32,000 nucleotides of DNA. Source: Pirellula staleyi DSM 6068 (GTDB lineage: Bacteria > Planctomycetota > Planctomycetia > Pirellulales > Pirellulaceae). Below, piece after piece: positions 3,092-9,950 of this stretch (position 1 is the first letter of the stretch; the number at the start of each line of letters is the position of its first letter). Location of the stretch: the NCBI GenBank assembly GCA_000025185.1, contig CP001848.1, forward strand, positions 3,360,001 through 3,392,000. The letters are read 5' to 3'. Both the position numbers and the translations under genes were made by a program. The notes under the pieces were generated by a model. That model saw only the letters and a program-made list of their open reading frames with translations. It had not been told where the DNA came from and searched no databases.

Positions 3092-5308
3092 TTACGGCAA
3101 CAGCGCCTTGGTATCCCCCTCGTGGAAGCTTCGTACAAAACGCTTTCCTTGGTAGTCGAACCAGATCGTGTAGAAGTTCTTCGAGCGATTCCACGGGTTC
3201 TCGTTCGTGAGGCTCCATTTAATCGCTTGCGTGGGACTGGTGATGATCCGCTGTCCGGTCGCGGTGAGATCAATCCAGTTAAGCCCTCCCCCTAAGTACA
3301 TGGCGACAATCTTGAACTCTTGCCCCGCCTCTTTATAGGCGATACCTGTGTTAGGGACCGCCGGGGCCGAAATCACTTCGGTAGCGACAGCCGTTTCCGT
3401 TTGCGTCTTCCCTTCGAATTCCCACTCCACTTCGAGTGTCTTCTCGACTCCTGGTTCGGGATCGCCAAAGAAGCGATCGTCGGCATGCAGCGCCGCAAAC
3501 GGATGCTGCGCCACTTGAGCCTCGAAGTACTTCGTGACGTCGATTCTCTTAGTCGGACCGCCGTAGGTCGCCTTCTTCACAATCACCGGCGAGCCGAGCG
3601 GGTGCGATTTGCTTTCAGGCTTTCGCTCTCCATCGACGCTGGCAGTGCCGTTGAGCATCGTGAGTTTCAGTGTGTGGAATGCGACTCTCGCTTTGTGGGC
3701 GGTGAGGGCCATGTGATCGCGGCTGCGCATTTTCCGCACACCATCGATATTCTGCGAGCCAACGCCACGCCAGATCCCCAAGAGCTTGTCATCGAGGTAG
3801 ATCTCGACCGTGGAGACGTTGGAGTCGCTCTTCACTCGAGCAAAAAAACGATAGCGCCGACCATTCTCGAGTTGATTGGGGGCGACGCGAACGAGAGTGG
3901 GAGTATCGACGCCGAGTAAAGCATGTTGACCCGCTTGGGCAGAAAGGAGCAGGGCACAATAGCCGCGCGGTGTTGGAAGCACCATCGAGACGATATCGGC
4001 ACCTTGTTCACGCGTGAACTCGGTGTAGACCTCATAGTCCCCGCGGATGGTGACAGGGACATCGAGCAGTGCAGCATACGAAAGTGGTGCCAAAATGCTC
4101 CCGTCGTCGCGCCGTTCCCACTGCTGATTGAGGCAGTCGGTCTTCAGGTTGACGACCTCGAGCAATTCCTCGGGCAAATCCTTGGCTCCAGCGGCTGGTT
4201 TAATAGTTGGAGCAAACGGGTCTGCAGGCATCGCGGGGCGAGTCGTGGGGCTGGGAACGGCCGGGACCACCGGCACCACTGGAACATTGGATGCCACGGC
4301 TGGCGGTGTCACCGGGGTGGGAGTTCGTGAGGCTATATCGGAAACGACACCCGCCTTGCGAAGTTGCTCGATCCGCAATTCGGCCTTGGCAGCGGCGAGC
4401 CCTTTAAGCTTCGATTTCACTTTTGTGTACCACAACAGAGCTTGGGCACGCATCACTTCCTTGCCCACTTTGCTGGTGTCTTTTTGCGAGGCCTCCCACC
4501 ACAAATCGGCCACTTTCTCCTGCTGAATGAGATCGTCGGTGGCAGCGACTTCTGCTTGCACCGCAGCACGCAGAGGGGAATCGCTCGCTTTCAGCAAATG
4601 CTCGAAGCCGAGGCGGAAGTCCTGTTTCATCAAGAGATAGAATCGCCCCAGTTCGTCGTTTGCAACCGGATCGTCGGGAGTCGTTTCGAGTGTTTTACGA
4701 GCGACCGCGATTTTCTCGGAAGCGGCTGCAATCTCTTCGATCGCGCGAGCCCGATCGAGCAGCTGTTGTGCGGTTTCTACATCCCGTCCACGTCTGGCAT
4801 AGTCGGAGAGGCCGGTGAGCAATTTGGAGGCATCGGTATAGCGGTCTTTCAAGCACAGCGACTCTGCCAGCTTGGTTCCCTCTTGGATGGCGATTTTTTT
4901 CTGCTCAATCGGAACAGAACTTTTGAGAGCCAAGCCAATGGTGGCGATGCGAACCGCCTCGGCATCGAATTCAAACTCCGATTCCAAAACATCGATCGCC
5001 TTCATAGCGCTTGGCACATCGGCTGCATCGGCTGCCACTTCGCGGCACAAATTGAGCAGCACAAAGCGAGCGGCTGGATCGTCGCGCGTTTCGAGAGCGA
5101 CTCCCATCAAACGCGTTGCGAGTTGGGCTTTGGCGGTGGAAGTGGTGGCTTTCGAGACCTCGAAGATCGAATCGATCTCTTCGCGGCGCGAATCGCGATC
5201 CTCTTTCGATGGAATGGCCTGCTTGGAGGCAGCAGCGGGTGCAGGCTCCTGAGCCTGGCAAAGATGGGGGAAAAGGAGCAGTAAAACGTAGATTCCGAGG
5301 CTCGCCAT
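3092..5308 (-). CDS. Large secreted modular protein, paralog B: helical N-module, Pro/Val linker, one beta-sandwich-like module, two small C-terminal domains
   Basis: ORF 3092..5446. The ATG at 5308 gives a signal peptide MASLGIYVLLLLFPHLCQAQE; the upstream 46 codons are Arg/Ser-rich and not protein-like. The N-module is clearly homologous to the 5642..8548 protein. Confidence 0.85.
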   Translation of the reverse strand: MASLGIYVLLLLFPHLCQAQEPAPAAASKQAIPSKEDRDSRREEIDSIFEVSKATTSTAKAQLATRLMGVALETRDDPAARFVLLNLCREVAADAADVPSAMKAIDVLESEFEFDAEAVRIATIGLALKSSVPIEQKKIAIQEGTKLAESLCLKDRYTDASKLLTGLSDYARRGRDVETAQQLLDRARAIEEIAAASEKIAVARKTLETTPDDPVANDELGRFYLLMKQDFRLGFEHLLKASDSPLRAAVQAEVAATDDLIQQEKVADLWWEASQKDTSKVGKEVMRAQALLWYTKVKSKLKGLAAAKAELRIEQLRKAGVVSDIASRTPTPVTPPAVASNVPVVPVVPAVPSPTTRPAMPADPFAPTIKPAAGAKDLPEELLEVVNLKTDCLNQQWERRDDGSILAPLSYAALLDVPVTIRGDYEVYTEFTREQGADIVSMVLPTPRGYCALLLSAQAGQHALLGVDTPTLVRVAPNQLENGRRYRFFARVKSDSNVSTVEIYLDDKLLGIWRGVGSQNIDGVRKMRSRDHMALTAHKARVAFHTLKLTMLNGTASVDGERKPESKSHPLGSPVIVKKATYGGPTKRIDVTKYFEAQVAQHPFAALHADDRFFGDPEPGVEKTLEVEWEFEGKTQTETAVATEVISAPAVPNTGIAYKEAGQEFKIVAMYLGGGLNWIDLTATGQRIITSPTQAIKWSLTNENPWNRSKNFYTIWFDYQGKRFVRSFHEGDTKALLP

Positions 5309-5641
5309 CAAGAGTGATCGCTGTCCGCTGGATCGGGAAGAGCAACGGTTGCTTGAAGTCTCACGCGACGCTGCTGGTTGCCACGAGCAAACGCTCCGCC
5401 ATTGCAGGTTGCTGACCAAAGCCGATCCCAGTCTGATCGCTATCATGATGAGTTTGCTCCCTGGATAGTGGTGAAGAGTGCACTTGATTATGGGGTATCT
5501 CGTGACGGTCGCCTATCACGACGGGCAAAGAATTTTTGGGGGATCAGGGGGCTCATCGTGCACTCTGTCTAGCCCTGATGCCCACCCACTGGTGAACGAG
5601 AAAGTGAGGTGCATTTCCAGCAGTGGCAAGTGGCGAGGAAG

Positions 5642-8548
5642 TTAGTCGGCCACGGCTGTTCCATCGAGCACGCGCAGCTCGAGCGAATGAAATACCACCT
5701 TGCATCCGTGAGCAAACAGACTCGGATGTTGCCCATCGATGATCGTGCGGAACTTGTCGACCACCTCGATCGCAGGCCCTTTCCAGTTGGCAATCATTTC
5801 GCCACCGAGGAACATCTGCGCGACAGTATTGTCCCCATCGGACGCAACACGAATGGCCAGCTGATATCGCTTGCCATTCTCGATCGGCTCATGCACGCCG
5901 AAGACTCGGTTTTCGGAGAAGCCGATAACCGATTCCCCTTTTTTTCGATGACTGATCAGCAGTTCGAGAAATTTTCCTTCGACTGGGACCACCATGCCGA
6001 GCGCATTGGCTCCCTCTTCGCGAGTGAAGTCGAGAAACAGCTCATATTTTTTCGGGAGCTTTACAGGGAGATACAAACGTGAATCGAGTTCCCCTCCCGA
6101 GACAATGGTGGTGTCGACGCGACTCCATTTTTTGCTCGATGGGTGGACTTCTGGGTTGGCAAGTTCGAGCAAGTTGCGGGGCAGTGGTCCGCCTGGTTTC
6201 GTGGAGGATTTGGTCGGGGCTGCTGGGGACGAATCGTCGACCGTGACAGAGCCATCAATCATTTTGAGATCGGATGAGTGAAATACCACGCGTGAAAGAT
6301 GGGCGTAGAGGCCGATGTGGTTCAGCTTTCGCATCGTTCGAGTACCACCGTTTTCATTGAGTGTCCCTGCTCCGGTCCATTTGCCGAGAACAGCTCCGTC
6401 GAGCGTGATCTCGACGCTCGATTCCTCCTGACCTGCGGTCACCGATGCGATGAGTTTGTAGCGATGGTTGTTCTCGAGAGTCGATGGTGTGAGTCGAACC
6501 GCCTTGGGATCGCCGATGCCGATGTAGCCAACATCGCCACCCCGCGCTGAGAGCAGGACCGAGCAAAAGCGGTCGTTCACCGGCAAGATCAGACCGACGA
6601 CTTCGTCCTCGGTTTCACGGGTGAACTCCATGGTGAAGACGTAGCTGCCGGTGATGGTCAGGGGCAACTGCAGCAAAGGAGCTTCTGCTGGTAGCGCGAT
6701 GATCTCTTTTTCGCGACGCTCCCAAACTTGGCTGATCGCATCACGTTTGACATCGACGAGGTCGAGAACATTTTCTGGCACCTTGGCGACAACGGGGTTG
6801 GAACTGCTAGGGAGGCTGCTCGATGAAGAGTCCCCCGCCTCTTTCGCAGGTGGCTCGCGTCCTTCATCGAGGGTGAGTGTTGTCCCTTGCAGGAACTTTA
6901 CTTCAACGGAGTGAAAGACGACGCGCGACTCGTGAGCATAGAGCCCAAGGTGCTGCCGGGATCGCATCTTGCGATCACCATCGGTATTGGCAGTCCCTTT
7001 CCCTTTCCATTCGCCCAAGGTTTCGTCATCGAGTTTGGCCTCGACGCGCGTCCCCTCAGGAGTTTCCACCACCCTCAGCGAGAAATGATAGTTGTGGCCA
7101 TTCTCGAGCCGCGATGGTTCAAACTTTATGCGAGTTTCAGATCCGTTACCTAGGTAACCAGAGACTCCACCATCGGTTGAGAGGAGAACGTCGCAAAATC
7201 CGTCCGATGTTGGGAGGACCACCCCCACGATGTCGTTGCCTGTTTCGCGAGTGAATTTCACATGGACTTCGTAGGTTCCGCTGAACTCGAGCGGCAACTG
7301 GAGCAGCGCGCCGTAGCCGGGTGGGGCGGCGATGCCGTTCTCGACACGCTCCCACTTTTGATTCAGCGAGTCTTTGTCGACGTCCACCAGATGGATCAGG
7401 TTTTTGGGCAACTCGACCGTTTTGGCCTTAGTTGAGCTGCCCGATAGGTCCGGCATCGCCGGACGCTCGCCAGGAGGTCGCGAGAAAATGCCGAGATCGC
7501 CCTGGGTCGCTGCCGGCTGAACGCCAGCGCTAGTCATCTGCTTCATGCGCAGGTCGGCTTTGGCGACAGCGAGTCCCTTGAGGTAGGGCTTCGCTTTTTG
7601 GTACCAGGCCAACGATCGCGACTGGAATTTTTGCTGCGATTCCTTCGCCGGTTCCTTGGAGGCAATGTCCCACCACAGGTCGGCCAGCTTCTCTTGCTCG
7701 ATTGGATTCTGGGGATCGGTGAGTTCTAGTTTGGCGGCCGATGCCAGGGGAGTATCGCCCGACTTGGCGAGGTGCGGCAAAGCTTTGGAGGCATCTCCTT
7801 TGGCGAGCAAATAGTAGTTGCCTGCAGTCAAGTTAGCTGCGACGTCGTCGGGCGTTTGCTTGAGGACCTCGAAAGCGGGCTTCACCTTAAGAAAACCGAC
7901 TTCGAGGGTGTCGGCCAGTTTCCGCTGTTCCGCCAGGAGGTTGGCTGTTTTCAGATCGCGCGCTCGGCGAGCGACGTCCGACAGACCGACGAACAGCTTC
8001 GATGCATCGGCATAGCGGTCGTCGGCCATCAGCTTCTGGGCGAGCTGCGTACCGAACGTCAGCACCTCTTGTTTCTGATCAGGGGGAACAGCCGACTTGG
8101 CCCCTTGGCTGATCGTGGCGATTCGAACAGCATCGGCGTCGAACTCGAAATCTGGCTCTAGGAGCTCGATAGCAGCAAATGCGACCTGCATTTTGGCGGC
8201 ATCGCAGGCGAGTTCACGGGCCAGGTTCAGCAAAACGAACCGAGCAATGGGATCGCTGGTGGTCTCTTGTCCGGTGGTGAGGACCCGCTCGGCAAGTGCC
8301 GCTTTGGCTGCGGGGGTGACCGCCTTTGCCGGTTCAAAGATGGAGTCGACCTCGGCTTTGCGAGCATCGCGGTCGGCCTTCGGCGGGACGGGCTGTTTGG
8401 TCGATGCTGCTGGAGCCCCCACCTGAGTACACACATCGGCGTGAACTTGTGGACCATCAGGCTCCCCGGCCCGTAGGGATGCAGTGATCCCTAAGAGTAG
8501 AAAACCTAGGAGACGCGGGCTAAGCCGAGCGCTGGCTAGCGTGGTCAT
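5642..8548 (-). CDS. Large secreted modular protein, paralog A: helical N-module plus three tandem beta-sandwich-like modules
   Basis: 968-aa ORF with signal peptide MTTLASARLSPRLLGFLLLGITASLRAGE. Three internal repeats of about 175 aa at nt 6881..7414, 6251..6784 and 5660..6187. Confidence 0.9.
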   Translation of the reverse strand: MTTLASARLSPRLLGFLLLGITASLRAGEPDGPQVHADVCTQVGAPAASTKQPVPPKADRDARKAEVDSIFEPAKAVTPAAKAALAERVLTTGQETTSDPIARFVLLNLARELACDAAKMQVAFAAIELLEPDFEFDADAVRIATISQGAKSAVPPDQKQEVLTFGTQLAQKLMADDRYADASKLFVGLSDVARRARDLKTANLLAEQRKLADTLEVGFLKVKPAFEVLKQTPDDVAANLTAGNYYLLAKGDASKALPHLAKSGDTPLASAAKLELTDPQNPIEQEKLADLWWDIASKEPAKESQQKFQSRSLAWYQKAKPYLKGLAVAKADLRMKQMTSAGVQPAATQGDLGIFSRPPGERPAMPDLSGSSTKAKTVELPKNLIHLVDVDKDSLNQKWERVENGIAAPPGYGALLQLPLEFSGTYEVHVKFTRETGNDIVGVVLPTSDGFCDVLLSTDGGVSGYLGNGSETRIKFEPSRLENGHNYHFSLRVVETPEGTRVEAKLDDETLGEWKGKGTANTDGDRKMRSRQHLGLYAHESRVVFHSVEVKFLQGTTLTLDEGREPPAKEAGDSSSSSLPSSSNPVVAKVPENVLDLVDVKRDAISQVWERREKEIIALPAEAPLLQLPLTITGSYVFTMEFTRETEDEVVGLILPVNDRFCSVLLSARGGDVGYIGIGDPKAVRLTPSTLENNHRYKLIASVTAGQEESSVEITLDGAVLGKWTGAGTLNENGGTRTMRKLNHIGLYAHLSRVVFHSSDLKMIDGSVTVDDSSPAAPTKSSTKPGGPLPRNLLELANPEVHPSSKKWSRVDTTIVSGGELDSRLYLPVKLPKKYELFLDFTREEGANALGMVVPVEGKFLELLISHRKKGESVIGFSENRVFGVHEPIENGKRYQLAIRVASDGDNTVAQMFLGGEMIANWKGPAIEVVDKFRTIIDGQHPSLFAHGCKVVFHSLELRVLDGTAVAD

Positions 8549-8641
8549 TTTGCTACCTCTTTCTGGGGCTTCGAGAGTCGCCCAGATTATCTAGCAAATG
8601 TACGCCAATTGAAAGCCAGAAGCTTGAAGAACGGAGGGTTG

Positions 8642-8938
8642 TTACATTCCGCTCCAGCTGGCGCTCGAACCGAAATCGAACGTTGCGCCGACGGCCATGA
8701 TCGAGAAGGTTGTTCCGCACCAAGCCCAGCTGCCATGATTCATGCCGATGGCGGCGACGGTGGCGAGCCCCATGCCAATGAGGCAAAGCACAAAGAAGGC
8801 CTGGCAGTATTTGTGATGCGAAGCATGCTGAATGCGCGCCAAAAAGATACTCACAAGACCTGTGAGTTGCAGGGCGAGCGTCAGGGCAAAAAAGGTGGGA
8901 TCAGCAGCATCGAACATCGCAAAGACTCCAGAATCCAT
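8642..8938 (-). CDS. Small integral membrane protein (three predicted TM spans)
   Basis: ORF 8642..9055. Start uncertain: ATG at 8938, 8917 or 9055. Hydrophobic spans PTFFALTLALQLTGLVSIFLA, AFFVLCLIGMGLATVAAIGM and WCGTTFSIMAVGATF. Its stop lies 93 nt upstream of the paralog A start, on the same strand. Confidence 0.55.
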   Translation of the reverse strand: MDSGVFAMFDAADPTFFALTLALQLTGLVSIFLARIQHASHHKYCQAFFVLCLIGMGLATVAAIGMNHGSWAWCGTTFSIMAVGATFDFGSSASWSGM

Positions 8939-9181: not shown

Positions 9182-9309
9182 ATCACAATCTGCTAGCGGA
9201 CCCTAGTTCTAAATGTTTGAGATCGCTTTCAGAAAGTGCTAGCAGATTCTCTTGGAACGAACATCACGAAACTGCTAGCATTTTTACATGTTGGGGTGTG
9301 CTAGCGATT
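9182..9309. repeat. Cluster of four TGCTAGC(A)-core motif copies in a divergent promoter region
   Basis: Copies: ATCACAATCTGCTAGC 9182..9197 (fwd); TGCTAGCAGATT 9237..9248 (rev); ATCACGAAACTGCTAGCA 9263..9280 (fwd); TGCTAGCGATT 9299..9309 (rev). GCTAGC core spacings are 46, 36 and 26 bp. Confidence 0.75.
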
Positions 9310-9332: not shown

Positions 9333-9950
9333 ATGGACGGTTCCGATGAACGCGAAGCGAGTGAGTGGTATGAGAAGAAGTCGGGCTGGATGTCGGAATT
9401 GCTCGGCGAAGAGCACGATATGGTGATGCATGCCATCATTCCCTACGCGATCGGTGGCGGGCTCGATCTGTACTACTATCCCAACCAGGTGGAAGGGACA
9501 GGTATCGCGACGAAGGAACTTTGCGAACTCCCGGGGCAAGGATCGTCGAGCAAGCTGTTTCAGAACTACGAAATGGTGATGTTCACACGGCATCCACTCG
9601 ACCTCGATCTTGCGCAAGATGAAACCACTCCTTTCGGCGCAGCCCACAAGAGCATCAACGCATTTTTGAACTTCATGGCTCCCTACAGTGCCGAGGCTTC
9701 ACTGAATCCCTTCGAAACTTGCGAGTTTCCGGCGGAGATGGATATCGTTGGTGGGCGTTGCTTGATTTTTGATTACTACGGGGCAACGTCGGAGGATTTC
9801 CCAGCCGAGTTTGGCATGCTGCTGCTCATCGAGATCTTTCCGAGCGAAATGGCTTTCGCACGTGAAAACGGTGGCGACGCACTCATCAAACTGCTGCGAG
9901 AGCGTGACCACCATCCGTACAGCGATCTCGATCGCGAACCGGTGGCGTAG
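9333..9950 (+). CDS. SUFU-like (suppressor of fused family) domain protein
   Basis: 205 aa, with AAGGAG 8 nt upstream of the ATG. The motif order resembles bacterial SUFU-family proteins: HAIIPYAIGGGLDLYYYP, GIATKELCEL, YEMVMFTR, then LLLIEIFPSEMAFARENGGDALIKLL...SDLDREPV. The assignment is from memory of the family pattern, not a search. Confidence 0.6.
   Translation: MDGSDEREASEWYEKKSGWMSELLGEEHDMVMHAIIPYAIGGGLDLYYYPNQVEGTGIATKELCELPGQGSSSKLFQNYEMVMFTRHPLDLDLAQDETTPFGAAHKSINAFLNFMAPYSAEASLNPFETCEFPAEMDIVGGRCLIFDYYGATSEDFPAEFGMLLLIEIFPSEMAFARENGGDALIKLLRERDHHPYSDLDREPVA

Follow-up and report, generated by a model that had tools for sequence, protein, structure and literature searches.

We analysed a 32,000-nucleotide stretch of the Pirellula staleyi DSM 6068 genome (contig CP001848.1, positions 3,360,001 to 3,392,000; hereafter the window, to whose own positions all coordinates refer), in which an earlier inspection, here called the original prediction, had singled out a cluster of three genes on the minus strand. 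The list of open reading frames (ORFs) confirmed three co-oriented ORFs on this strand: a small membrane ORF, Psta_2590 (8642–8938), which is annotated from 8917 as a protein of 91 residues; Psta_2589, referred to as A (5642–8548; 968 residues), which encodes a signal-peptide-like leader, a helical N-terminal domain (the N-module) and three modules with a predicted lectin fold; and Psta_2588, referred to as B (3092–5308; 738 residues), which encodes a leader, an N-module, a Pro/Val-rich linker, a single lectin-fold module and a tail of 177 residues. All three are labelled ‘hypothetical protein’ in the annotation. A and B had been described as giant, but at 968 and 738 residues they are merely large. 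The results presented below suggest that they are exported, probably glycan-binding proteins built on a conserved helical docking domain.

A is an exact match to ADB17258.1 / WP_012911520.1 in a look-up by exact sequence, and its codon-usage score is positive, as is that of the small ORF. The start of B is given differently by RefSeq (WP_044181680.1, 738 residues) and GenBank (ADB17257.1, 784 residues). In their longest forms, the ORFs extend to 5446 for B (784 residues) and to 9055 for the small ORF, and codon-usage scores are negative for both upstream extensions. For comparison we used a strain contig (L001) that is 98.8% identical to the window; in the 138-nt extension of B (5309–5446) we observed two synonymous and four non-synonymous differences from it, at more than twice the substitution density. 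Negative codon usage, the substitution pattern and the 738-residue RefSeq form all argue against the 784-residue start, and the predicted starts that we prefer are at 5308 for B and at about 8938 or 8917 for the small ORF. Since the 5308 start is supported in these three ways, the 333-nt spacer between A and B that had been pointed out previously holds up. The small ORF lies 93 nt from A in the same orientation. Scanning for promoters and terminators revealed nothing above chance level, and a search for DNA repeats detected only echoes of the duplication at the protein level.

The N-module occupies residues 45–347 of A (7508–8416) and residues 23–324 of B (4337–5242; E 1e-131), as delimited by hidden Markov model envelopes. 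An AlphaFold2 model of the A copy, calculated for residues 45–347 from a 21-sequence alignment, has a mean predicted local distance difference test (pLDDT) score of 96.3 and a predicted template modelling (pTM) score of 0.87; it contains 14 helices and lacks any strand of at least three residues. The N-modules of A and B are 48% identical, and the expectation of a helical unit that is about half identical in the two proteins is therefore borne out. When compared with the PDB using Foldseek, the model matched helical-repeat proteins only (alpha-SNAP, the kinesin light chain tetratricopeptide repeat (TPR) domain, LapB and LGN), and these matches were weak, with a best E-value of 0.02 and template modelling (TM) scores of 0.36 or less. 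As modelled, the N-module is a TPR-like solenoid without a specific solved relative.

At the sequence level, neither A, B nor the small protein gave anything above threshold in Pfam or NCBIfam, and no significant match among all sequences in the PDB was obtained with phmmer or with profiles. The TPR models of Pfam did not match A or B at E ≤ 1, and 21 N-modules scanned singly showed sporadic sub-threshold matches (TPR_19, E 9e-4; TPR_MalT, E 1.8e-4). Among 63 full-length relatives, no Pfam family covered the N-module. As anticipated in the original prediction, the N-module has no strong match to a characterised family in Pfam, NCBIfam or the PDB. The accompanying statement that no family could be named holds in so far as no sequence threshold was reached in these three resources, but the folds are ordinary ones and the N-module is not an orphan.

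The N-module is characterized by a PVP start, by the motifs DDPxxRFVLLxxAR and PDDPxANL, and by WW and WY. A and B score 441.8 and 431.8 bits, respectively, across positions 1–301 of the profile of approximately 300 positions. Since both proteins belong to the set from which the profile was built, the independent evidence comes from the 10,918 other clusters that matched at E ≤ 1e-3 when 1.84 billion representatives were searched exhaustively with HMMER, 5,809 of them at E ≤ 1e-30. Clusters were counted at 50% identity, and the family size is a lower bound, at least 10,918. A scan of GTDB genomes with a wider subfamily profile, A6, identified four loci, all in Planctomycetota (Planctomycetaceae, Tepidisphaeraceae and Pirellulales). 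When A or a profile of the A/B clade was used, no close relatives were found in GTDB genomes or in JGI metagenomes, and PLSDB plasmids gave no match with a typical family member. To date, members of this unnamed family are known from Planctomycetota only. The A/B clade itself is rare, its 90%-identity clusters having six and five members.

The second building block is the repeated module, of which A has three copies, defined by alignment at residues 378–563 (module 1; 6860–7417), 587–772 (module 2; 6233–6790) and 787–968 (module 3; 5645–6190), and B has one, at residues 376–561 (3626–4183). These copy numbers agree with those first proposed, but the C-terminal tail of B (residues 562–738; 3095–3625) had been missed. 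When the four copies (about 185 residues) are aligned, 31 columns are invariant; module 3 is the most diverged copy, with 27–31% identity to the remaining modules of A and B. We modelled residues 373–738 of B with AlphaFold2 from an 18-sequence alignment, and the repeated module was predicted in blocks mostly with pLDDT of 90 or above. Foldseek returned 191 PDB matches for this module at E ≤ 1e-3, and the top 50 were almost all lectin or carbohydrate-binding sandwiches of the concanavalin-A-like class. The best match was carbohydrate-binding module (CBM) 66 of Bacillus subtilis (4b1m_C; E 2.5e-6, probability 1.00, TM (target) 0.68); galectins and legume lectins came next. In the model, the repeated module is a beta-sandwich with the concanavalin-A-like lectin fold. 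Single scans of 18 repeated modules gave sub-threshold matches to CBM_6 (E 0.0038) and, in one relative, to 3keto-disac_hyd (PF06439; E 0.011). PF06439, for which the gathering threshold is 26.8 bits, did not match A or B at E ≤ 1, and neither protein had a Pfam match to Laminin_G_3 (PF13385). Since the sequence and profile links are sub-threshold or partial, the module can be assigned firmly at the level of fold only. The tail of B, which is beta-rich in the model, resembles two units of about 80 residues (‘ATYGG..DVT’ and ‘GDPxPG..K.L’) and shows a sub-threshold match to DnaJ-like_C11_C (DUF3395; E 0.048–0.12).

Signal-peptide-like N-termini had been proposed for both large proteins, and a hydrophobicity heuristic recognised n-, h- and c-regions in each. 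The leader of A comprises residues 1–27 (8468–8548), MTTLASARLSPRLLGFLLLGITASLRA followed by G, with a Kyte–Doolittle score, KD(11), of 2.42; its hydrophobic stretch LLGFLLLGITA precedes LRA and then the G. That of B comprises residues 1–19 (5252–5308), MASLGIYVLLLLFPHLCQA followed by Q (KD(11) 2.55), with SLGIYVLLLLF before CQA and then the Q. By the same heuristic, no segment after the leader of A or B exceeds KD(19) 1.5, as would be expected of a later membrane span. Judging from these features, A and B are probably exported. We also considered B as a lipoprotein, and rejected this reading because no lipobox precedes Cys17. The predicted low-complexity linkers are likewise present, Pro/Val-rich in B (residues 325–375; 4184–4336) and Ser-rich in A.

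A and B are clearly paralogues that have diverged, as had been inferred by eye: BLASTP aligned them with 44% identity across 548 residues (E 6e-141), and the B module also aligned with modules 2 and 3 of A (E 1e-42 and 5e-29). The only other close relatives, P0032 and P0028, are about 50% identical and come from separate contigs of one sequencing run; neither has a paralogue at the position predicted by the A-to-B order. P0032 is a mosaic in which an A-like N-module and a module like module 1 of A are combined with a module that is B-like (58% identical) and with a tail of the B type, which points to module shuffling among paralogues. In P0028 (L007, 6021–7666), which is A-like, the lectin-fold module appears disrupted, with approximately 40 residues missing and the rest in another frame; the gene may be a pseudogene, or the assembly may contain an error.

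To see how members of the family are built, we took a census of the 148 best representatives and surveyed Pfam domains in the 63 full-length relatives. A short hydrophobic leader stands directly before the N-module in 74 of the 148, a J-like domain is N-terminal in 27, and another long N-terminal region is found in 29; two or more N-modules occur in 13. The repeated module of A and B is present in 21, in one to four copies and always after the N-module. The median length beyond the N-module is 195 residues, and the usual order is a leader or membrane anchor, the N-module and one head of about 200 residues. Heads recognised by Pfam include Laminin_G_3 (11/63), WD40 propellers (6/63) and NPCBM (5/63), as well as PA14, Lectin_C and 3keto-disac_hyd; the majority of these are binding domains. 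With a leader, an N-module and three or one lectin-fold modules, A and B fit this architecture. In the members that are Ser/Thr kinases (P0020 and L024:9861-12839), the N-module is located after a single membrane span, and the same is true of the J-like members, among which P0002–P0005 and P0024 were inspected and have a membrane span and a Pro-rich linker. This placement implies that the module lies outside the cytoplasm, in agreement with a published survey that located the TPR, WD40, FGE-sulfatase and DUF1080 domains of planctomycetal kinases on the periplasmic side (PMC11032199). The N-termini of P0002–P0005 carry a conserved J-domain-like region of about 90 residues (FDPYxxWLGI...), from which the HPD motif is missing and which matches the DnaJ family of Pfam at sub-threshold level only (E 7.6e-4 and 0.084). 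We considered J-domain membership for A and B as well, and rejected it: the region is absent from both, and the version in their relatives is the sub-threshold one without HPD.

Comparison with the near-identical strain provided a view of recent change. A differs from its L001 counterpart by 32 synonymous and 23 non-synonymous substitutions and B by 29 and 10. Substitutions in the neighbouring housekeeping genes are mostly synonymous. Within A, the N-module has a single amino-acid change in 303 residues and module 1 has eight, a distribution in keeping with a docking part that is conserved and a binding part that varies. Of the 20 amino-acid differences from this 98%-identical orthologue, five fall within 11 residues of module 1 (residues 503–513; 7010–7042), a pattern that may reflect variation at a binding surface or recombination over a short tract.

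Taken together, we hold with moderate confidence that A and B are exported, probably glycan-binding proteins that are carried on a conserved helical docking domain. Both would leave the cytoplasm by the Sec route as soluble periplasmic or cell-surface proteins. The N-module solenoid of about 300 residues would most likely serve as a protein–protein docking or stalk domain, joined by a flexible low-complexity linker to the lectin-fold modules, and these (three in A, one together with a small beta-rich tail in B) would most likely be ligand-binding, with a glycan as the probable ligand. The pair probably arose by an old tandem duplication, in keeping with 44% identity, followed by the module shuffling that is common in the family. 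Several points weigh against this interpretation. The leaders were judged by heuristic alone, and that of B is without a basic residue. The match to CBM_6 (PF03422) reaches 22.1 bits (E 1.9e-4) against a gathering threshold of 28.9, and is partial, covering residues 669–737 of A in module 2. In hhalign comparisons with heads of sister proteins, the module had a probability of 47% to a DUF1080-like head and of 1.3% to five Laminin_G_3 heads. The tail of B was modelled poorly, with low confidence. The lectin fold also serves in protein binding and catalysis, hence glycan binding is only its commonest use. The synteny test of the small gene, described below, covered only two relatives that are close, together with loci that are more distant, and literature searches using locus tags, accessions and terms for the domains found no description of the genes or the N-module.

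It is conceivable that A and B do not act by themselves but as co-receptors, the soluble lectin-headed proteins associating through a putative docking or oligomerisation function of the N-module with membrane-anchored N-module proteins, and so relaying a ligand signal across the membrane. The position of the N-module after the membrane span in the kinases and in the J-like P0002–P0005 is compatible with this, as is the much stronger conservation of the N-module relative to the heads. The tandem arrays in the family are also relevant here. We found six to seven N-module genes in L012/L013, at least nine in L014/L024, three in L020 and two in L011, with heads that vary from gene to gene (Laminin_G_3, C-type lectin and DUF1080-like). 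The L014/L024 array brings together soluble lectin-headed members and a kinase member in which the N-module follows the membrane span, and elsewhere P0005 directly follows the gene for a 1049-residue kinase. Against the co-receptor reading, no kinase or J-like protein of the family is encoded in the 32-kb window, and only a small minority of members are fused to kinases, Pkinase lying outside the 25 commonest Pfam families in the 63 representatives. On these grounds we regard it as rather unlikely. The broader proposal that the N-module is a dedicated periplasmic docking domain, through which a large and diversifying set of soluble lectin-headed proteins would be joined with kinases and J-like proteins in a putative modular, extracytoplasmic ligand-sensing network, specific to planctomycetes and undescribed, seems to us distinctly doubtful. 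The L012/L013 and L014/L024 arrays are on metagenome contigs Ga0310811_10009297, Ga0310812_10000020 and Ga0310810_10000175. As tandem paralogues are a family-wide habit, the A/B pair is in itself no sign of a special system.

We also asked whether the repeated modules might be catalytic, either as DUF1080 / 3-keto-disaccharide hydrolases or as some other concanavalin-A-like glycosidase, in which case A and B would count among the secreted carbohydrate-active enzymes. The single related module that matches PF06439 at E 0.011 could be taken in this sense, and so could a member of a tandem array that scores 26.6 bits for PF06439, just below the cut-off of 26.8; it is to the DUF1080-like head of this protein that the hhalign probability of 47% applies. 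However, the absence of any PF06439 match in A and B at E ≤ 1 argues in the other direction, and so do the leading structural matches, which are lectins and carbohydrate-binding modules without catalytic function. A threefold tandem arrangement within a single chain, moreover, is what one typically sees with binding modules, not with catalytic domains. An enzymatic role is thus very unlikely, and binding by the lectin-fold modules is the reading that we retain.

The original prediction had combined the three genes into an envelope system consisting of a membrane partner and a duplicated scaffold, with conserved synteny expected in relatives. Of the three membrane spans suggested for the small protein, two are strongly hydrophobic by the heuristic and the third is only weak. 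A tblastn search (E ≤ 0.1) of 44 related loci revealed no homologue of this protein except in the near-identical L001. The gene is absent beside P0032 and P0028, the closest non-identical relatives, and the neighbours of three more distant family members are unrelated; conserved synteny of the small gene was looked for in these relatives and was not found. Around the cluster in the window lie rpiB, an esterase gene, phoU, a PhoB-type regulator and genes for riboflavin synthase, KsgA and a BON-domain protein, and on the L001 contig ribosomal-protein genes and Sua5 come next. That the multi-span Psta_2590 anchors or exports two paralogous secreted scaffolds is therefore most improbable, since the points in its favour, namely co-orientation with only 93 nt to A, a positive coding score with two or three hydrophobic spans, and retention of the arrangement in a 98.8%-identical strain (too close a relative to be informative about function), are set against the lack of homologues, the differing neighbourhoods and a 90%-identity cluster for the small protein of just two member sequences. 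The small membrane ORF is best regarded as a neighbour of A and B and not as their partner.

Some further features of the region were noted. Downstream of B on the same strand, between 561 and 2475, are a BON-domain protein with a hydrophobic leader (1603–2475) and an ORF of 191 residues with a lipoprotein-like leader (561–1136), both co-oriented with B. The run thus contains five co-oriented putative envelope genes, all gaps being 0.3–0.6 kb apart from the one that separates the small ORF from A (93 nt). The palindrome GCTAGC occurs 17 times in the window as compared with 5.3 expected, and this number was reached in none of 100 shuffles. Four copies are clustered (9192–9305) in the intergenic region from which Psta_2590 and the ORF at 9333–9950 diverge, and two of these lie inside the 17-nt arms of an inverted repeat (9233–9249 and 9268–9284); another copy is at 8535–8540. 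The cluster may be an operator-type site.

Planctomycetal genomes are rich in large exported proteins annotated as ‘hypothetical’, and for two of these, A and B, a description at the level of fold is now available. The locus is an ordinary member of its family, with no new system evident, and its main interest lies in the large unannotated N-module family. With more than 10,000 clusters and no above-threshold match in the Pfam and NCBIfam libraries used, the N-module would make a good new domain-family entry, and the family offers a tractable target for studying how planctomycetes recognise polysaccharides or other ligands at the envelope.

How do A and B compare with known systems? As modelled, the N-module resembles TPR domains such as those of LapB, kinesin light chain and alpha-SNAP in its all-helical hairpin-repeat architecture, but it behaves as one fixed unit of about 300 residues with its own motifs, whereas TPR domains are variable arrays of 34-residue repeats. 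The A/B module resembles CBM66 of the exo-levanase SacC from B. subtilis (4azz/4b1m) in its beta-sandwich fold over approximately 167 columns, and like many CBMs it is found in tandem and joined to other domains; identity to CBM66 is, however, only 11–12%, and the partner is a helical domain where that of CBM66 is a glycoside hydrolase. Among Pfam families we considered DUF1080 (PF06439) as the closest one, and its profile matches are sub-threshold or partial and fall outside A and B. Laminin_G_3 (PF13385) heads occupy the position of the A/B modules in many sister proteins, but the modules are not Laminin_G_3 by sequence, given the lack of a Pfam match and the hhalign probability of 1.3%. Finally, the periplasmic domains of planctomycetal Ser/Thr kinases (PMC11032199) draw on the same domain repertoire and lie on the same side of the membrane as the N-module family, some members of which are such kinases. 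Unlike these, A and B have neither a kinase domain nor, by the heuristic, a membrane span, and appear instead to be soluble, leader-bearing proteins.

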